Assembly: GCA_014874355.1 (NCBI GenBank) | Contig: JACWAJ010000066.1 | Span: 12,417 to 76,416 of the forward strand | DNA length: 64,000 bases | Direction: 5' to 3' | From: a bacterium | GTDB taxonomy: Bacteria > Chloroflexota > Dormibacteria > Aeolococcales > Aeolococcaceae | In this document: piece after piece, positions 26,393-59,630 of the stretch | Layout of the letters: each line of letters begins with the position of its first letter | How positions within the stretch are numbered: position 1 is the stretch's first letter | The notes under the pieces: model-generated | What the model saw: the letters and a program-made list of their open reading frames with translations, nothing else | Told to the model about the DNA's origin: nothing | The model's database searches: none | Translations under genes and position numbers: made by a program

Positions 26393-27157
26393 GTGTCTGG
26401 AATGCTGGCGCCGCTGCCTCTCGAAACCCACCCCCCCGACGTCGGCCCGGCGCGCAAGCGCAACGTGTGGCAGCGGGACATCATTGAAGTTCTCATGATC
26501 GCACTTGTCCTCTACCTCATCATCTGGAGCGTCCTGCAAACTGTCCGCGTTGATGGAAGTAGCATGGAAAAAACGCTGCAAAATTCCGACCTCCTACTGG
26601 CCAGCAAGATCTCCTACAAGATAGGAGACCCCGAGCGCGGGGACATAGTGATATTCGTCCCACCCGTCGGCCCCGATCGAGACTTCATCAAGCGGGTCAT
26701 CGCCGTCCCTGGGGATGTCATCGAGATCGGCGGCGTATGTGGTGCCCGCCCTTCGAAGCTACTCATCAAACCGGGGGGCAATGGCGATTATCAGACCGTC
26801 CAGGAGCCCTATCTCAATGAGCCATGGTTGCAGTTGCCGCCCCCCGCGGGTAGCTGGTGTGCTGCCAATGGATACTCCAAGGTTGTGGGGCCGACGCCCG
26901 TGACGGTTCCCGCCGGGGAGTATTTCGTCATGGGCGACAACCGCAACCACTCTGAGGATTCACGCATCTTCGGATTCATCACGCGAGGCGCCTTGGTTTC
27001 CAAAGCCATCCTTAGAATCTGGCCGCCGTTCAAGTTCGGGCTCGGTCCGGGCGCCACGTTGATCCCCTCGATTGCAGCCGCAGGCCCGCTGTGGGCGCTA
27101 ATGCGTAAACCCAAGCGACAGGCAAAGCGGCGGGCTAGGCGAGCCAGGCAGCGCTAG
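26393..27157 (+). CDS. lepB: Signal peptidase I
   Basis: VDGSSMEKTL (Ser box), KRVIAVPGD, GDNRNHSEDSR boxes; N-terminal TM. Confidence 0.85.
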   Translation: MSGMLAPLPLETHPPDVGPARKRNVWQRDIIEVLMIALVLYLIIWSVLQTVRVDGSSMEKTLQNSDLLLASKISYKIGDPERGDIVIFVPPVGPDRDFIKRVIAVPGDVIEIGGVCGARPSKLLIKPGGNGDYQTVQEPYLNEPWLQLPPPAGSWCAANGYSKVVGPTPVTVPAGEYFVMGDNRNHSEDSRIFGFITRGALVSKAILRIWPPFKFGLGPGATLIPSIAAAGPLWALMRKPKRQAKRRARRARQR

Positions 27158-27587
27158 TCGAATCCCAAAAAACCAGTTCTCCCGGCTCGAAGAAAAGGGC
27201 AACCTCCTCTTCCGCACGCCTCGGAGAGTCAGATCCGTGGATGACGTTCATTCCCAGGCTAAGCGCCAGATCGCCACGGATGGTGCCAGGTGCCGCATCG
27301 ACAGGGTTGGTCACGCCCATCGTGGTGCGAACCATGCCGACCACACCAGGACCCTCCCAGACCATGGCGACTACAGGCGAGGAGGTGATAAAACTCACCA
27401 GTCCGTCAAAAAACGTCTTACCCTCGTGTTCGGCGTAATGCCGCTGTGCCAAATCCTTGGATATGCGCATCAGCTTCAGGCCGGCAAGGTGGAGGCCTCG
27501 TCTCTCGAGACGGCCGATTACCTCTCCAACCAGTCCACGTTGAACGCCGTCGGGCTTTACCAGTACTAAAGTGCGCTCCGTTTGCAT
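27135..27587 (-). CDS. ndk: Nucleoside diphosphate kinase
   Basis: TLVLVKPDGVQRGLVGEVIGRLE...NVIHGSDS active-site His motif. Start could also be the upstream ATG at 27611. Confidence 0.85.
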   Translation of the reverse strand: MQTERTLVLVKPDGVQRGLVGEVIGRLERRGLHLAGLKLMRISKDLAQRHYAEHEGKTFFDGLVSFITSSPVVAMVWEGPGVVGMVRTTMGVTNPVDAAPGTIRGDLALSLGMNVIHGSDSPRRAEEEVALFFEPGELVFWDSTSAAWLA

Positions 27588-27607
27588 GCGATCAACTTCC
27601 TCTTTGC

Positions 27608-28882
27608 TCATGTTCCGAGTAGTGCCTTTTCCAATCGCTCAGGCCTGCGGAAGGGTCCTACAACAGCGCCACGCAGGCCACCATTGCTCGGATCCAGCAT
27701 GGTAGCGGCCAAACGCGAAACATCGGCCGTGCTGACGGACTCGATACCGGCCAGCACCTTGGCGGGTTCCAAGATCGTGCCGATTAGAACCTCTTGCTGT
27801 CCGTAGAAGGCGCCAAGCGCGCCGGTGTTCTCGAGCTGCACACGCAAGCGCCCGGACGTGAATTCCTTGGCCTTGGCAAGTTCAGCGCCACCAACGCCGT
27901 CGGCGGCCAGCTTCTCCAATTCCACCACCGCGGCTCGGATGGCGGCCGGAGCGCGAGCGGGGTCACACCCCAGTCCGATACAAAGCGCACCGGAGTCGCG
28001 CAGCTTGACCGTGTAGGAAGAAACGTCGTAAGCCAGAGCCCGGCGCTCCCTCAACTCGAGAAAGAGGCGGCTGGACATCCCCTCACCAAGGATGCAGTTG
28101 AGAACGTCTACGGCATAGCGGTCGGGACTGAGATAAGCGGGCGCCCGCACACCCAGGAGAATTGCCGCCTGTTCTGTGCTCCGGCCAACGACACGAAGCG
28201 AAGGCCCATCGGGGAGTGTGGCCGCGATCGGTGGCGACTCCGGTGATCCCTCACCCCCCCAGCCGCCCAGCCGCCTTGCAAGCCGGCTGGTCACAGCATC
28301 CGGATCGATAGCACCGGCCACGCTGACGACGAGCGAACGTGGCACGTAGTGGGCGATCAGGTGGCCACGACATACATTCGAGTCAAAGCTCAGCACCGTC
28401 GCCTCGGTGCCCGCCACGTCGCGACCAAGCGGGTGATCGGGCCACATCACCTCATCGAACAGGGTTTGAACATGATCTTGTGGCGAGTCCTGGTACATGC
28501 GAATCTCCTCGACAATGACGAGCCGCTCCTTGGCGACCTCGTCGGCATCGAGCACAGGCTTCACCAGAATGTCTGCGAGCACGTCGATTGCTATGTCCAG
28601 CTTCGGCGCCGGCACTTTGGCCCAGAACACCGTTTCCTCGCGGTCAGTCGAGGCATTTAGGACTCCGCCCACGGATTCAACCGCCTCGCTCACCGCGCGG
28701 GCGGTGGCATAGCGTTCACCGCCCTTGAACACCATGTGCTCGATGAAATGGGCCAGCCCGCTGTTGGCCTCCGTCTCCCAACGAGACCCAAAGCCAAACA
28801 TAAACGACACCGAAGCCGAAGCCCGTTCGAGCATTGGTGCGGTGACTACGCGCACCCCGTTATCGAGCTGCTGAAGCCTGTG
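27608..28882 (-). CDS. M16-family (insulinase/pitrilysin-like) zinc peptidase
   Basis: Inverted zinc motif HFIEHMVFKG. Start uncertain (GTG ~28882 vs ATG 28960). Confidence 0.8.
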   Translation of the reverse strand, partial: HRLQQLDNGVRVVTAPMLERASASVSFMFGFGSRWETEANSGLAHFIEHMVFKGGERYATARAVSEAVESVGGVLNASTDREETVFWAKVPAPKLDIAIDVLADILVKPVLDADEVAKERLVIVEEIRMYQDSPQDHVQTLFDEVMWPDHPLGRDVAGTEATVLSFDSNVCRGHLIAHYVPRSLVVSVAGAIDPDAVTSRLARRLGGWGGEGSPESPPIAATLPDGPSLRVVGRSTEQAAILLGVRAPAYLSPDRYAVDVLNCILGEGMSSRLFLELRERRALAYDVSSYTVKLRDSGALCIGLGCDPARAPAAIRAAVVELEKLAADGVGGAELAKAKEFTSGRLRVQLENTGALGAFYGQQEVLIGTILEPAKVLAGIESVSTADVSRLAATMLDPSNGGLRGAVVGPFRRPERLEKALLGT

Positions 28883-28936
28883 TCCCACCGCCTCTCCTGG
28901 AGTTAATTGACGCTCCCCTTCTCGCAAGGGCACGTC

Positions 28937-29112
28937 AGTGCACCGTCTCAGACTTGGCACGCCGCTGCATCAACCCATCCTCGCCGATCCGTGCGTCAGC
29001 TTCTGCGGTCCTCGGACAAGTACGTTGAGTACGTATCCTCCGGTCCTTGGCGCTTCCTTCGGCTCGGCGGTCTGTGCGGCGCATCAACGCGCCAAGTCTG
29101 AGACGGTGCACT
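28937..29112. repeat. Perfect 22-bp inverted repeats (AGTGCACCGTCTCAGACTTGGC / GCCAAGTCTGAGACGGTGCACT) flanking a 132-bp core. MITE-like element or long-range RNA stem between jag and the M16 peptidase gene
   Basis: Seen directly at 28937..28958 and 29091..29112. The core contains the short repeats gcatcaac x2 and tacgt x2. Confidence 0.5.
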
Positions 29113-29866
29113 AGCGGTTGTTCCAAGAGCGGCGTCCAGCAGGTTCTGCACCCGCCTCTGACGAGCCGGTGGGGTGAATGATGATGCGCCTGGCCGGCTC
29201 CTGCCCCGAGCTCTCAGTCCTCACTCCAGCGTCACCTTCAAGGGTGATGTGGACGATCCGCCGCTCGTAGGCGTGCATCGGATCAAGGGTATAGCGTTCG
29301 CCACTGCGCTTCACCCTATCCGCAAGTCGCAATGCGAGTTCGCGCACGTGCTCCTCCCGCCGCGCCCGGTAGCGTTCGACATCGATGATCACCCGGCGCT
29401 TCTCGACTTCGTCAGCGCTGGTGTCGGTTGCGTCCAGCATCAGGTTGACGACCGTCTGCATCGCTCGCAGGGTCTCGCCTCGCCACCCAATCAGCAAACC
29501 GAGATCGTCGCCGGCGACGTCGATGATCAGTGGAGGAAGCGCAGAGACAATACGCGTCGACGCCGCGGCCAAACGGACGCTCACTCGGGCGGGAATGTTC
29601 ATCCATACCAGCAACTCGTTCACAAGACTCAAGGCACGAGCCGTGCGCCCATCGAGTGCGCTGACTCGAACGCATGCATCCTTGGCGCTCAGCCGTTCAC
29701 CGGGCACAGCCATTGTGGCCTCGTTGAGAACCTCTATAGCGGCGCGGTCCCGTTCAATACCCAACTCTGCCAATGCTCGGGAAATCGCAGTTTCCACATC
29801 GGCACCGTAGGCCTCGACACACTCACCACCAACCCCACTAGTCGCCGTCAGCCCCGGGTTATCCAT
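29111..29866 (-). CDS. jag: Jag/KhpB-like RNA-binding protein (Jag_N + KH + R3H)
   Basis: Position downstream of yidC; C-terminal R3H-like HAYERRIVHITL motif. Confidence 0.8.
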   Translation of the reverse strand: MDNPGLTATSGVGGECVEAYGADVETAISRALAELGIERDRAAIEVLNEATMAVPGERLSAKDACVRVSALDGRTARALSLVNELLVWMNIPARVSVRLAAASTRIVSALPPLIIDVAGDDLGLLIGWRGETLRAMQTVVNLMLDATDTSADEVEKRRVIIDVERYRARREEHVRELALRLADRVKRSGERYTLDPMHAYERRIVHITLEGDAGVRTESSGQEPARRIIIHPTGSSEAGAEPAGRRSWNNR

Positions 29867-29895
29867 ATCGTTCACGTCGTCTCCCGCTTTTTCAC

Positions 29896-30852
29896 CTAGT
29901 CGTTCCGATTGCGAGGTGTTTCCATATTGGCCATCAGGCCGGACTCCGAGGCCCGTGCTGCCGCCTGGGAAAGGCGGCGGCGGCGGTGATCCTCGTGGGT
30001 TAGGTCGGTGACCCGGTGCGCTCCCGGAACCCAAGATGGCATATGGATTGCACCCCAACCGACCAGATAGTGCTGCTGCACGATCATGTACAGGCTCTGG
30101 GTCACCCAGTAGATGGCAATGCCCTGCGCAAACTGGAGTGACATCCACACGATCATGACCGGCATGAACAACGTCATTTGGTTGCTCATGTTCTGCATCG
30201 ATTGCTGCTGCGCGGAAGCGTTGGCCGGCGGCGGGATGAGCATCATCCGCGACTGGACCAGGGTCGCCACGCCCGCGACCACCGGGAGCAACAGCAGCGT
30301 TGGGTGCTGGAATAAGCCGTCGATCCAGCCACGGAAGTACTCGGTTCCACCGCTGGTCTTGGAAATCAAGCAGCAGGCTTCGTGGGCGGTCTGGGTGACG
30401 TTCGGGATCCAGAGAAAGCCCAAGCCTCCCTGCAGGTTCTTACTGGCGTTCTGGATGGCCCAATACAGCGGGAAGATGATCACCGACTGCAGCGCCATCG
30501 GCAGGCAGCCCTTCATCGGCGCCGTCGGACTGATGCCGTGCTCGCGGTAAAGCTTTTGCATCTCCTGGTTGAGCTTTTGCGCCTGACCCTTATAGCGCTT
30601 GCGCAACTCTTGAAGCTCGGGCGCAAGCTTTGCCATCCCCGCTTGGGACTTGCGCATCGTCCGCATCTGCCAGGCGAAAACCGGGAATAGAATTGAGCGC
30701 AAGACCAGTGTCAAGACGATGATTGCCAAGCCGAAAGCGCCAATCGCACTCAGAATCCAAACGTGCTCAAAGACCAGCACCATCTTCTCAAGAGAAAAGG
30801 CGAAAGCCTGGGTCAGCAGGTCGAGTGGGTTGAGGTTGAGTGCGGCAATCAC
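29896..30852 (-). CDS. yidC: Membrane protein insertase YidC
   Basis: Conserved YidC core (…[31 protein letters not shown]). GTG start overlaps the yidD stop. Confidence 0.85.
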
Positions 30853-31136
30853 GCCGTACCCTCGGTTTTGTGCCCCAGGTGCTTGCTCCGGCGAGCTTCT
30901 CGCCAGCTCACATAGGTCTCCGGCACCGGGTCTTCGCCGCTGCCACCCCACGGAGCGCAGCGTGCAATCCGGCGAATCGCCAACCACCAACCACGCCTAA
31001 AGCCGTACTTCTGGATGGCGGAGTATCCATACCACGAGCAACTCGGCTCGTATCTACAGCGGCCCAAAATGCTTAGAACCGGCCCCAACGTCATCTGGTA
31101 AGCCCGAATCAATATCAGGCTGATCTTCGCCATCAT
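30849..31136 (-). CDS. yidD: Membrane protein insertion efficiency factor YidD
   Basis: [18 protein letters not shown]...[19 protein letters not shown] signature; ATGA overlap with rnpA. Confidence 0.75.
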
Positions 31137-31531
31137 TTGTGAGTTGCTTTTTCACCCAGTCGCCGGGTCACCAGATCAGCAACAGTCTCGATCGCACGAT
31201 TGGTATCGGAGTTCAGAGCCGAGTACGGCACGTCCGCAGCAGCGAACCCGGTGGTCACAACGAAGTCCAAACCGGCATGCTTCGAAAGTGGTGACTGCAC
31301 GGCAGCGCGTAGGCGCCGTCGAAGGCGGTTACGATCCACCGCAGTCCGCACGCCTGTGATCGAAAAGCCGATCCGCGCACGTTCTAGCGAATTGGGCGCA
31401 GCGGCGACCCTAACGACGCCGACCGTACACCTTGCGCGCCATGCTCGGACGAACGCAAAGCGTCTTCCGCCACTCAATGCTCCCGGTCGCGTGGACATGG
31501 CGGCCGCAGTCTGCGAGCCCGCCACGGTCAC
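31133..31531 (-). CDS. rnpA: RNase P protein component
   Basis: Basic RNR motif region ([14 protein letters not shown]); GTG start overlapping the rpmH stop. Confidence 0.8.
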
Positions 31532-31674
31532 CTCGCGGGTGCAGGTGTCAGGCGCTTGCGTCCCTTGAGACGCCGTGCCTTGAGCACCGCCCGGCCTCCT
31601 GGCGTCGCCATGCGCGTGCGAAACCCGTGGGTCTTGCGCGCGTACTTCTTCTTGGGTTGAAAAGTCCGCTTCAG
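31528..31674 (-). CDS. rpmH: 50S ribosomal protein L34, apparent CTG start
   Basis: Translation (L)[47 protein letters not shown]. There is no in-frame ATG/GTG/TTG after the upstream TAG. GGAGAAG lies 8 nt upstream of CTG. Confidence 0.8.
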
Positions 31675-31902
31675 AGGGTCTTCTCCAATCTAGGTAATCT
31701 CATCCACGACGTGACCGGCCGAACCGGACACAAGACGGCCATGGACCGCTGAACAGTGGCGCAAGTATAGCAATGCGGCCTCCCGATGTCCCATCGGAGG
31801 TCTGCTAGACTCCATTGGTCCGGCGGGAGGTCGAATCGCAACGACTTCCGCTTTCTCCTTCCAGGGTTCTCTCTCGCACCCGCCAGGCTATTTGGATCGA
31901 GG

Positions 31903-32015: not shown

Positions 32016-33500
32016 GTGGTGACTGAAGATTCCACCGGCATGAGATCTGATCTCAGCCCCTTGGCTGTGCCCGATCCACCCGCCGACGAGGCAACGGCCG
32101 AACCGGAGGAGCAATCTCAGGTTGGCTTCGACCCCTCGCAGATATGGCAGGCCGCTCAGGAGGAACTGCGCTTCCAGATCGCCCGCCCAGGCTACGAAGC
32201 GTGGCTTTCGAACACCGTTCTCTTGGAATCTGACGGCAACACCTTCACGATCGGGGTTCCCACCCGCTTGGCCCGGGACTGGGTTATTGAACGCTACGTG
32301 CCCCTCATCAAGGAGACTTTGTCGGGAATGCTGGCGCGTGAGTGCAACGTCATCATCACCGTCGATCCCGCGGCAGCCCCGCCACCCGACGATCCCGCGC
32401 CGATTGCCACGCAAGAGAGTGGTGGCATAGAGAGCACTGATGAGTTCTCGGACGGCACCGCCGGCACGACAACGGACTCCCACCTCAACCCGAATTTTCA
32501 GTTCTCCACTTTTATCGTCGGCAACTCCAGCCGCTTTGCCCACGCCGCCTGCAAGGCGGTAAGCGACGCGCCCGGGAAAGCCTACAACCCGCTGTTTTTG
32601 TATGGAGGAGTGGGTCTCGGCAAGACTCACCTGATGCACGCCATCGGACATGCGGTCCGAGAGAAGAACCGAAGGGCAAAGGTCACCTACGTCAGCTCGG
32701 AGAAATTTATGAACGAGATGATTGCGGCGATCCAGGCAAACCGCACTCATGAGTTTCGAATGCGGTATCGCACCGTTGACGTCCTGCTAATCGACGATAT
32801 TCAGTTCCTTGCAGGCAAGGACCGCACCCAGGAAGAGTTCTTTCACACGTTCAACGCCCTTCACGAGATCCAGAAGCAGATCGTTGTGTCAAGTGACCGC
32901 CCTCCTAAAGAGATCCCCACGGTAGAGGATCGGCTTAGAAGCCGTTTCGAAGGCGGGCTGATGGCAGATATCCAACCGCCCGATTTTGAGACCCGACTAG
33001 CAATTCTTAACTCCAAGCTGGGGTCCCATCGCCGGCTTGTCCCCGAGGAAGTGTGTTCCTTCATTGCTCACAGAATCCACACGAACATCCGCGAGCTTGA
33101 GGGTGCCCTCATTCGCGTCCTGGCCCACGCCTCTATCAACGACCAGCCCGTGACATTGGACGTGGCTCAGCGCATCCTCCAAGACGTGCTCCCAGCCAAC
33201 GAAAGTGCCCTCATCACCATCGAAGCCATCCAGGACACGGTTGCTGCCTACTACGGCACTTCGATTGATGAAATGAAGGGAAAGCGACGGGACAAACATA
33301 TCGTTTTTCCCCGCCAGGTGGCGATGTACCTCATTCGCGACGATATAGAGACCGCACTCACGGTAATTGGCTCAGCGTTTGGTGGTCGCGATCACACAAC
33401 TGTGCTCCATGCTTGCGAGAAGATCAAGGACTTGCTCACAGAAGACACCAAACTCCAGGTTGACGTCCGCAATATCCGTGAACAAATCCAGTCGCGATAG
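32016..33500 (+). CDS. dnaA: Chromosomal replication initiator DnaA
   Basis: Walker A GGVGLGKTHL, sensor motifs, C-terminal DnaA-box-binding HTH. GC ~56%, below the flanks. Confidence 0.95.
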   Translation: MVTEDSTGMRSDLSPLAVPDPPADEATAEPEEQSQVGFDPSQIWQAAQEELRFQIARPGYEAWLSNTVLLESDGNTFTIGVPTRLARDWVIERYVPLIKETLSGMLARECNVIITVDPAAAPPPDDPAPIATQESGGIESTDEFSDGTAGTTTDSHLNPNFQFSTFIVGNSSRFAHAACKAVSDAPGKAYNPLFLYGGVGLGKTHLMHAIGHAVREKNRRAKVTYVSSEKFMNEMIAAIQANRTHEFRMRYRTVDVLLIDDIQFLAGKDRTQEEFFHTFNALHEIQKQIVVSSDRPPKEIPTVEDRLRSRFEGGLMADIQPPDFETRLAILNSKLGSHRRLVPEEVCSFIAHRIHTNIRELEGALIRVLAHASINDQPVTLDVAQRILQDVLPANESALITIEAIQDTVAAYYGTSIDEMKGKRRDKHIVFPRQVAMYLIRDDIETALTVIGSAFGGRDHTTVLHACEKIKDLLTEDTKLQVDVRNIREQIQSR

Positions 33501-48419: not shown

Positions 48420-49568
48420 ATGGCAGCAGCCAGGCTAGATAGGCAGAGGCATGGCATGGCAAAGCCCCAAGCACGTTCTAAGACGCCAAGACGTGGTGGC
48501 TTGCCGCCGACGTGGCGGATTTGGTTAGGCACGGGGTTGTTGCTGGTGGCGGCCGCTCTGGTATGGGGTTGCGCCGTTGCGGTGGTGCCGTGGCAAAACC
48601 CCTTGGAACTCGTCCTCATCCTGCTTCCGGTGGCCGCTGTGGTGCTGCTCTACCACGCATACTCTCGTGAGCGGGGCCGCCGCGAGTCCGCCGAGAGGCT
48701 CAAGAGTGAACCTGGCACCTACGGTGTCACGGCGTCCCGTCAGCAGTTGCGCGGTGACATGGAGCGAGCCGTGAAGCGCGGTCAGTTCGTGTCCCATTAC
48801 CAACCGGTGGTGGACCTTCGTGACGGTCGCATCGTGGGCGTCGAAGCCTTGTTGCGCTGGCGACATCCCGAGCGCGGACTCATCGGACCTGACGAGTTCG
48901 TTCCCATCGCCGAGGAGTCCGGGCTGATCGTTCCTCTCGGTGAGTTCGTACTTCGTGAGGCGTGTAGCCAAGTTTCCACCTGGCAGCGGCTCTATCCCGG
49001 CGTGTCGGATTTCTTCGTGAGCGTCAATATTTCGGCGCGGCAACTCCAGCAAGAACTCTTTGTCGAGACGGTGATGAATTGCCTTGGCTCGACTGGAGCC
49101 AAACCCACATCACTCGTGCTCGAGCTCACCGAGTCGATGCTGTTCGAGCCGAGTAGTCCTTTGCTGGGCAAGCTTGAGGCCCTGCGTCGCCAGGGCATTC
49201 GGATCGCCATTGACGACTACGGCACCGGATACTCGTCGCTGAGTTACCTGCGCAACTTGCCGGTCGACATCCTCAAGGTTGCCAAGCCATTTGTTGACGA
49301 TCTGGCTGAAGATGCCGCTCGCGGGGATTTCGCTCGCGTGATCGTGACCCTGGGCCATTCACTGGGGCTGGAGATGGTGGCCGAAGGCATTGAGAAGCCC
49401 ATTCAGGCATCTCAACTCGGCCTCATGGGATGCACCCTCGGCCAGGGATTCCTGTATTGCCACCCGGTGGGGCCGGCCGAGATCGGCGAACTGCTGGAGC
49501 GGGGCGGTTTCATTCCTGAGCGTGGCGATGAAGGCGTAAAACGCGGCCAGGTCATAAGTTTGCGTTAG
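48420..49568 (+). CDS. Membrane-anchored EAL-domain c-di-GMP phosphodiesterase
   Basis: Two TM helices, then EAL signature (…GVEALLRW, ELTES, DDYGTGYSSLSYL…). No GGDEF domain. Confidence 0.85.
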   Translation: MAAARLDRQRHGMAKPQARSKTPRRGGLPPTWRIWLGTGLLLVAAALVWGCAVAVVPWQNPLELVLILLPVAAVVLLYHAYSRERGRRESAERLKSEPGTYGVTASRQQLRGDMERAVKRGQFVSHYQPVVDLRDGRIVGVEALLRWRHPERGLIGPDEFVPIAEESGLIVPLGEFVLREACSQVSTWQRLYPGVSDFFVSVNISARQLQQELFVETVMNCLGSTGAKPTSLVLELTESMLFEPSSPLLGKLEALRRQGIRIAIDDYGTGYSSLSYLRNLPVDILKVAKPFVDDLAEDAARGDFARVIVTLGHSLGLEMVAEGIEKPIQASQLGLMGCTLGQGFLYCHPVGPAEIGELLERGGFIPERGDEGVKRGQVISLR

Positions 49569-49623
49569 CAGCAATACCCAGTAAGGCGACGCATCAGCGT
49601 CGCCTTACTGGGTATTGCTGCTA
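49566..49623. terminator. 27-bp perfect palindrome (stem) with 4-nt loop, starting at the EAL stop codon
   Basis: TAGCAGCAATACCCAGTAAGGCGACGC-atca-GCGTCGCCTTACTGGGTATTGCTGCTA. Confidence 0.6.
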
Positions 49624-49703
49624 GCGTTGTGGTCCGCCGCGAGTCCGGCATTATCTCTGGCGGGCGTAACCACAACCGCCGCTGGTGACATCTGAGGGGA
49701 GAC

Positions 49704-59590: not shown

Positions 59591-59630
59591 GGCAAGCCGG
59601 GGTGGCCCTGTGGGGCCACCCCGGCTTGCC
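59591..59630 (+). terminator. 18-bp perfect-stem hairpin between the two cytochrome genes (attenuator/terminator)
   Basis: GGCAAGCCGGGGTGGCCC-tgtg-GGGCCACCCCGGCTTGCC. Confidence 0.5.

Follow-up and report, generated by a model that had tools for sequence, protein, structure and literature searches.

Introduction

The locus analyzed in this work raises the question of what a short sequence bounded by inverted repeats, embedded between jag and the gene coding for an M16 peptidase, might be, and how it might have come to lie between two genes transcribed in the same direction. The DNA in which it was found is a stretch of 64,000 nucleotides (hereinafter, the window, which indicates the whole stretch) from a member of the Dormibacterota, a widespread soil phylum that is uncultured and known almost only from MAGs, and for whose mobile elements no description was found in the literature searched. 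An earlier note on this DNA had suggested a MITE or another non-autonomous derivative of an insertion sequence (IS) or, alternatively, two arms forming a long-range stem in the leader of the peptidase transcript.

The jag-M16 Locus and the Anatomy of the Element

The gene assignments proposed previously were correct: Jag (R3H/KH/Jag_N) is encoded upstream of the element and the M16 peptidase and ndk lie downstream of it, all on the minus strand. The genes of interest are the following:

29896-30990, minus strand: yidC
29111-29875, minus strand: jag, coding for a Jag/EloR/KhpB-type RNA-binding protein of 254 aa; the boundary of the element falls on the jag stop codon
27608-28888, minus strand: M16 peptidase gene (426 aa, GTG start), with the ribosome-binding site GGAGAGG at 28891-28897
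27135-27611, minus strand: ndk, with which the co-directional cluster ends

On the basis of its Jag protein, whose best relative is only 64% identical, the window is assigned to a Candidatus Dormibacterota MAG.

The 22-bp perfect inverted repeat described in the earlier note is indeed present, with AGTGCACCGTCTCAGACTTGGC at 28937-28958 and its exact reverse complement at 29091-29112; when the whole window was searched for AGTGCACCGTCTCAGACTTGGC allowing up to three mismatches, these two matches were the only ones, and none was obtained in 100 dinucleotide-preserving shuffles. The outermost pair of this repeat (A28937/T29112) is assigned to a flanking TA target duplication, so that the element proper spans 28938-29111, that is 174 bp with 21-bp perfect terminal repeats, a size which falls within the range of bacterial MITEs (roughly 50-400 bp). 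The short internal repeats noticed before were also located: the two GCATCAAC motifs lie at 28967 and 29081, and the two TACGT repeats correspond to an apical hairpin near 29022-29037. The parts of the element are as follows:

28938-29111, minus strand: body of the putative MITE, 174 bp, which folds better on the minus (“sense”) strand, that of jag and M16
29091-29111, minus strand: 5′ terminal inverted repeat (sense), GTGCACCGTCTCAGACTTGGC, 21 nt; the G at its start doubles as the last base of the jag stop codon
28938-28958, minus strand: 3′ terminal inverted repeat, the exact complement of the 5′ repeat
29112-29113: intact TA target-site duplication, forming CTAG with C29114 and G29111 on the minus strand
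28936-28937: CA on the plus strand and TG on the minus one, presumed from the junctions of the other copies to be what is left of the second TA
29022-29037, minus strand: apical stem-loop of the rod-like hairpin (UACGU/ACGUA), helix 5

The boundary with jag is exact. The stop codon TAG occupies 29111-29113, so that the element starts with the G of this codon and leaves the TA just outside. The 222 nt separating jag from M16 are thus made up of the 174-nt element, the 2 nt of the TA and 46 nt that include the ribosome-binding site of M16, whose start codon is 49 nt from the last base of the element (28938).

Logan assemblies from three sequencing runs, each matching the window at 100%, were available; two of them span the element, and the identical sequence recovered in these independent assemblies (L002 and L006) indicates that the element is not an assembly artefact. 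As for run SRR12217122 (L003 and L007), the core was left unassembled between a contig that stops at 29091, precisely on the inner border of the repeat, and another that begins at 28966; these breaks may reflect a loss of coverage over the hairpin, or heterogeneity. The idea of an invertible core, which the breaks suggested, was set aside, since the second break falls 8 nt inside the core, off the repeat boundary.

No second copy was detected in the 64-kb window by blastn with a word size of 7, and the element is single within the approximately 67 kb of the source genome examined (the window and L094, with Logan contigs adding about 3 kb). The window harbors two other hairpins (49563-49626 and 59591-59630), one with 30-nt arms that are 97% complementary and a 4-nt loop, the other with an 18-bp perfect stem and a 4-nt loop, both unrelated in sequence to the element.

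Orthologous Sites in Related Genomes

The orthologous loci were collected by a Jag-alignment scan of species-representative genomes, which yielded 80 Dormibacterota loci. Jag and M16 genes are co-directional in 81 loci; in 70 of these the two genes are separated by a spacer with a median length of 12.5 nt (from -39 to 171), and the other 11 harbor an extra gene between them. None of these 81 loci, from about 80 relatives, carries an element of the window type between jag and M16; the Jag proteins of these relatives are distant from that of the window (at most 64% identity). The jag and M16 genes even overlap in GCA_038208555.1, the closest relative. If the element and one TA are removed from the spacer of the window, the 46 nt left are inside the normal range of the relatives, and AACCGCTAGACGTGCC is the sequence expected at such an empty site. 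This distribution points to a lineage-specific insertion rather than to a conserved leader. It also provides the comparison of orthologous spacers that the earlier note had indicated as a check; a sequence conserved in all relatives as part of the M16 5′ UTR, which that note had set against its own mobile-element reading, is clearly not what was found.

Some other features of these loci were observed. An extra ORF of about 200 aa, without any Pfam match, lies between jag and M16 in eleven relatives (L076:10855-11490, with equivalents in L008, L010-L012, L014, L018, L037, L052, L056 and L081) and is absent from the window. Moreover, a conserved hairpin-like motif (GGCGAAGGGGGAAC…GTTCCCCCCTCGG…CCCCCC) occurs in the first 60 nt or so past the jag stop codon in L016, L017, L021, L027, L028, L030 and L031, and the residual spacer of the window (28889-28935) contains a weaker GCCCTTGCGAGAAGGGG hairpin; the motif of the relatives may represent a conserved terminator or a regulatory stem. 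Lastly, the region 31517-31686 of the window, upstream of rnpA, shares 90% DNA identity with L004:4073-4241 and is the sole stretch of this kind in the comparison with the closest relative; it likely corresponds to the region of rpmH, close to dnaA (32016-33500) and to the presumed origin of replication.

Homologous Copies in Two Further Genomes

Homologues of the element were found at other sites in two further Dormibacterota genomes (L076 and L081) when about 1.4 Mb of Dormibacterota loci were searched. Three copies (c1, c2 and c3) lie within the 20.7 kb of L076 and one in L081, so that the family is based on five copies from three genomes:

Window 28938-29111, minus strand: window copy, 174 nt
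L076 13279-13454, minus strand: c1, 176 nt, between ndk and the signal peptidase gene
L076 15635-15724, minus strand: c2, half copy
L076 16854-17029, minus strand: c3, 176 nt, at the parB stop codon
L081 17023-17219, plus strand: L081 copy, 197 nt, a more distant putative member

By blastn, the element gave one significant foreign match in the whole set (L076:13298-13356, 83% over 60 nt, E = 3e-8). The search with nhmmer retrieved both c1 (E = 4.6e-10) and the half copy c2 (E = 2.7e-11), and a covariance model retrieved the distant L081 member with 27 bits and a rough E of about 1e-3. When global alignments were compared with those of shuffled sequences, the window copy and c1 (68% identity) gave z = 16.3, the window copy and c3 z = 7.9, c1 and c3 z = 7.2, c1 and the L081 copy z = 6.4, and the window copy and the L081 copy z = 1.7. 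The L081 copy, being tied to the others only via c1 and the rough covariance E, would therefore belong to the family less securely than the copies of L076. Comparisons involving reverse complements gave scores at the level of shuffles; the likeness is orientation-specific, which implies that the element is polar and not a symmetric palindrome.

The terminal repeats of c1 and c3 have strongly diverged from those of the window copy, and the core, including the sequences of the internal loops, is conserved. The opposite is usual among MITEs, and these data hint at a constraint other than transposase binding. The genomic contexts of the copies also differ, since they lie within an operon, between convergent genes or between divergent genes.

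The same set of loci contains a 23-mer, GGCGACAGGGGACGGGCGGCACC, that is repeated over a few hundred bases, in direct as well as inverted orientation and frequently beside TTACA/TGTAA (L066:16139-16258, L067:16144-16551, L071:16221-16405 and L060:16211-16401), and that looks like another family of clustered palindromic repeats.

Coding Capacity and Database Searches

The ORFs crossing the window element are only 58-64 aa long; they match no Pfam family, and the element has no transposase-coding capacity. Its concatenated six-frame translation found no match among 5.8 billion protein clusters, nor did its 63-aa ORF among 1.84 billion protein representatives, and a six-frame protein search with the L076 and L081 copies did not retrieve any homologue. 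Concerning RNA families, no Rfam match was obtained in the window at gathering thresholds and nothing relevant at E up to 10 in the region 28700-29400; a tRNA/tmRNA scan gave nothing, and neither a sigma-70-like promoter nor an intrinsic terminator was predicted in 28600-29500. That the element acts as a terminator or a promoter was thus rejected, given that it lacks a U-tract and that no promoter is predicted. An integron attC site was also considered and rejected: by inspection, the GCATCAAC pair is direct rather than inverted and does not fit RYYYAAC ... GTTRRRY, and the context, that is a conserved rnpA-yidC-jag neighborhood without a cassette array, argues against it as well.

At the DNA level, the 20-mer of the terminal repeat has no exact match in 185,579 species-representative genomes. 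Its sole match in the JGI metagenomes is attributed to chance, since it falls inside an ORF, on a contig of lower GC content, and has no inverted partner. The same conclusion was reached for the plasmids, where blastn gave two 33-nt matches only, and for the viral contigs, where the covariance model confirmed none of the six matches of a core-motif scan. A terminal-repeat-like match in L021 was rejected because it falls within the conserved HGSDS motif of ndk. When 1.46 Mb were scanned for TA-flanked inverted repeats of 140-240 nt, the known copies were recovered and no new ones appeared. In conclusion, the element has no detectable sequence likeness to Rfam, to the plasmid collection or, once translated, to the protein databases.

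The Hairpin Fold and Its Conservation

The arms of the element extend to 32 nt with 88% complementarity, and the whole sequence folds as one rod-like hairpin. A 211-nt stretch gave -112 kcal/mol (z = -7.3) on the minus strand and -104.7 kcal/mol (z = -6.5) on the plus strand; the 132-nt core alone still gave z = -2.5. In the alignment of the three alignable copies, 90% of the cells are standard pairs and compensatory changes affect 28 of the 66 pairs. Neither value was reached by any of 500 shuffles, and sliding the partners by 1-3 columns lowered the pairing to 32-40% and the compensatory pairs to 2-6. The compensatory pairs are distributed along the entire rod, apical stem included, and there are several invariant G-U pairs. 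On the sense strand, the consensus fold is also more stable (-87 kcal/mol) than on the other one (-63 kcal/mol), and each of the four copies shows an advantage of 5.6-21.8 kcal/mol for the sense strand. These data, which come from three copies related by descent, are suggestive of a constraint that may act on the single-stranded form of one strand.

The long-range stem that the earlier note had envisaged in the operon transcript does not compete with the MITE reading: since the element lies among co-directional genes, with neither a promoter nor a terminator predicted, and its hairpin is kept by compensatory changes, an RNA stem would be the expected result of the insertion.

A different possibility is that the element is a structured RNA with a function of its own, such as an RNase III/stability module or a cis RNA, either mobile by chance or exapted from a MITE, and that selection acts on the hairpin. 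The compensatory pairs, the high fraction of paired cells and the invariant G-U pairs in three diverged copies fit this idea, as do the consistently better fold of the same strand and a core more conserved than the termini; moreover, the window copy is sense-oriented inside an operon, and there is a precedent in the bcr1 repeat of Bacillus, whose secondary structure is kept by compensatory base changes (PMC3184786). However, the alignable sequences are only three and related by descent, the contexts of the copies are unrelated to each other, and the element shows neither conservation at the orthologous site nor any Rfam match. In addition, the correction of hairpin mismatches within the element could mimic selection. 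On balance, we regard such a function as rather unlikely. Equally doubtful, in our opinion, is the bolder suggestion of a portable RNase III/stability module that sits on TAG stop codons and re-tunes the downstream gene, or of a cis structure serving an unusual transposition; if true, a selection acting on the hairpin RNA or on a single-stranded intermediate would explain why the core and its pairing have been kept above the terminal repeats.

Junctions and Stop Codons

The junctions of the copies are reported below in the order outer flank, dinucleotide, element ends, dinucleotide, outer flank:

Window copy (minus strand): CGC / TA / GTGCAC…GTGCAC / TG / ACG
L081 copy: CGC / TA / GTGTCC…GGACAC / TA / GAA
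c1 (plus strand): CTC / TA / GGAGCC…GGCTCC / TG / CTA
c2, right end: …GGCTCC / TA / GTG
c3: CAC / TA / GCAGGG…CCCTGC / AA / GGG

The dinucleotide is TA at five of the nine junctions, and the remaining four are one base off TA; since TA accounts for 0.92% of the dinucleotides in the background, the binomial probability of this outcome is about 8e-9. The window copy has TA on one side and CA, a single change from TA, on the other, and TA is found on both sides of the L081 copy and of the IS of L076 described below. All the members of the family have G as first base and C as last base, and their outer flank is usually C…G, so that intact junctions read CTAG. Accordingly, four of the eight CTAGs of L076 and two of the 11 of L081 serve as element junctions.

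Real TAG stop codons (those of jag, ndk and parB) are occupied exactly by three of the four full-length copies. The fourth, the L081 copy, lies between parA and another gene divergent from it, and its CTAG closes an ORF that runs antisense to parA; hence, the idea that all copies abut a real stop codon was ruled out. The ndk and S26 signal peptidase genes are convergent, and in 10 relatives a single palindromic CTAG provides the stop codons of both; c1 is located exactly there in L076. The shared CTAG was recorded at L011:8696-8699 and L012:13213-13216 and in L013, L014, L016, L018, L031, L035, L038 and L085; in the window, there is an overlap of 23 nt (27135-27157) between these genes, each ending in a CTAG of its own. 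As for c3, its position is precisely that at which all relatives terminate parB; a CTAG is found at this point in about 10 of them. The ParB of L076 (16843-17949, minus strand) has TTG in place of the stop codon and acquires, via c3, 61 codons encoded by the element, even though a sequencing error in the MAG might also account for the TTG.

A Linked IS630-Family Insertion Sequence

Copies c2 and c3 are separated by a complete IS of 1125 bp (L076:15727-16851), which is nested precisely in their junction TA. Its ORF, without internal stop codons, codes for a transposase of 363 aa with the Pfam domains DDE_3, HTH_32, HTH_29 and HTH_23, which scored 266 bits against the NCBIfam model NF033545 (IS630; cutoff 100). 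Its terminal repeats, GTGTCGTGAACCACAGATTCG and GTGTCCTGAACCGTTGATTCG, match each other at 17/21 positions, the flanking TA lies within CTAG on both sides, and the stop codon TAG of the transposase ORF is formed by the TA target duplication and the first G of the adjoining MITE. IS630-family elements insert at TA, which is duplicated (PMC2170065), and IS630 transposition prefers the TA of 5′-CTAG-3′, according to Tenzen & Ohtsubo (1991) as cited in PMC2170065. With such a targeting, nesting is predicted, since every insertion makes two new CTAGs.

The termini of the L081 copy (GTGTCCTGCTTCAGAGGTTCG) match the left end of this IS at 16/21 positions, the first eight being identical. Those of the window copy match the L081 copy at 12/20 positions and the IS at 8/20. 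The string TA+GTGTC[CG]TG occurs in 1.46 Mb only at four termini, that is those of the L081 copy and of the IS. No transposase of this IS630 type was found by tblastn in the window or in 79 other loci.

These last data are compatible with another scenario, in which the family is made up of TA-flanked palindromic elements that are, or were, moved by a transposase not belonging to the IS630 family, the proximity of the IS in L076 being coincidental because both target CTAG. Indeed, the termini of the window copy, c1 and c3 match those of the IS at no more than 8/20 positions, the window and the 79 other loci harbor no such transposase, and many bacterial MITE-like repeats are described in PMC2229807 as having no identified partner IS. 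Nevertheless, TA duplication together with a preference for CTAG represents the signature of IS630/Tc1-mariner elements (PMC2170065), the L081 copy has 16/21 terminal positions in common with the IS, and the latter is located exactly in a junction TA between two copies. We consider this scenario quite improbable.

Origin of the Element and Proposed Mechanism

On the whole, the data make it likely that the sequence between jag and M16 is a MITE of the IS630 (TA-duplicating) type, representing a hitherto undescribed family of the Dormibacterota that moved by cut-and-paste in trans. The MITE, or non-autonomous IS derivative, surmised in the earlier note is thus upheld by the homologues at other loci, the empty orthologous sites, the TA/CTAG flanks and the nested IS630 element. 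That we are dealing with a conserved and non-mobile leader of M16-ndk, or with a one-off local palindromic duplication without relatives, is highly improbable, given that the sequence, even if single in 67 kb and located 5′ of the peptidase gene, is missing from the spacers of about 80 relatives (the closest of which has overlapping genes) and has significant homologues at unrelated loci of other genomes.

According to the model we propose, the MITE would have been moved by cut-and-paste through a DDE transposase of the IS630/Tc1-mariner type acting in trans, with the TA of a CTAG as target and with duplication of this TA; lacking a transposase gene of its own, the window element can only have been carried along by such an enzyme. 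The CTAG hit by the insertion would have been the one holding the stop codon of jag. The TA together with the terminal G of the element would rebuild TAG, leaving jag intact, and this might be the reason why the insertion was tolerated. One of the two copies of the TA would have decayed later, within the untranslated spacer.

Co-transcription of the element with jag and M16 is probable, as expected from the co-directionality of the genes and from the lack of predicted promoters and terminators. Transcription together with jag-M16-ndk would produce a rod-like RNA hairpin of 174 nt with a perfect terminal stem of 21 bp. RNase III requires about two helical turns of double-stranded RNA; the stem would be a candidate substrate of this enzyme or, alternatively, a stabilizing structure, and might uncouple or modulate the jag mRNA with respect to that of M16/ndk. 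The transposase partner of the window copy, the transcription through the element and the processing of the RNA are steps that we infer.

If this interpretation is correct, the family would be the first defined MITE family of the Dormibacterota, accompanied by a candidate IS630-family partner. The insertion into a CTAG with rebuilding of the stop codon would represent a route by which mobile elements are tolerated in tight operons (jag-M16) and at gene ends (ndk/S26 and parB), with the occasional extension of a protein, as in the 61-aa tail of ParB in L076. From a practical viewpoint, hairpin elements of this kind may break short-read assemblies and can mislead gene callers.

Comparison with Known Systems

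The closest parallel is offered by the RUP of pneumococcus, which PMC2229807 describes as a likewise small and non-coding element, with terminal inverted repeats and insertion at TA, proposed to be a MITE mobilized by IS630-Spn1. The termini of RUP are reported in the same source to resemble those of an IS630-family element of the same lineage, and a similar relationship links here the L081 copy to the IS of L076. RUP differs in being 107 bp long, AT-rich, typical of a Firmicute and present in 108 copies in one genome, and no sequence relationship with it was seen; in our case, the termini of the window copy are weakly tied to an IS.

The enterobacterial ERIC/RU-1 and RU-2 repeats and the Correia/NEMIS repeats of Neisseria also share with the window element TA ends and long, stable stem-loops, and have a TA duplication like the one presumed here; they are described in PMC2759123 and PMC2229807 as imperfect palindromes of 100-170 bp, often co-transcribed with the flanking genes. 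The RNA hairpin of Correia is proposed to be cleaved by RNase III (PMC2229807), and RU-1 is stated to be able to fuse to the 3′ end of an ORF whose normal stop codon is removed (PMC2759123, PMC2229807), which is the same phenomenon as the read-through of parB in L076. On the other hand, ERIC/RU and Correia belong to another phylum and have no sequence similarity to our family, and the passages of PMC2759123 and PMC2229807 dealing with them make no mention of an association with CTAG or TAG stop codons, or of a G that rebuilds the stop. Neither an IHF site nor an outward promoter was detected at the window element.

The bcr1 repeat of the Bacillus cereus group is similarly short (about 155 bp), dispersed and transcribed, with a structure maintained by compensatory changes (PMC3184786); it differs in that its direct repeats are of 5 bp and its fold is a cruciform made up of two stem-loops, whereas the window element forms one rod and has a presumed TA duplication. 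IS630 and ISY100 also insert at TA with a 2-bp duplication (PMC2170065), but the window element, unlike them, carries no transposase.

Two features of the family appear unusual, even though not categorically new. The first is that the copies are consistently located at TAG stop codons, which their terminal G restores; the second is a core that, together with its pairing, is more conserved than the terminal repeats. In the light of these comparisons, this is an ordinary kind of element, that is a TA-duplicating hairpin MITE, in a new lineage, and it extends, rather than changes, the current understanding of MITEs.
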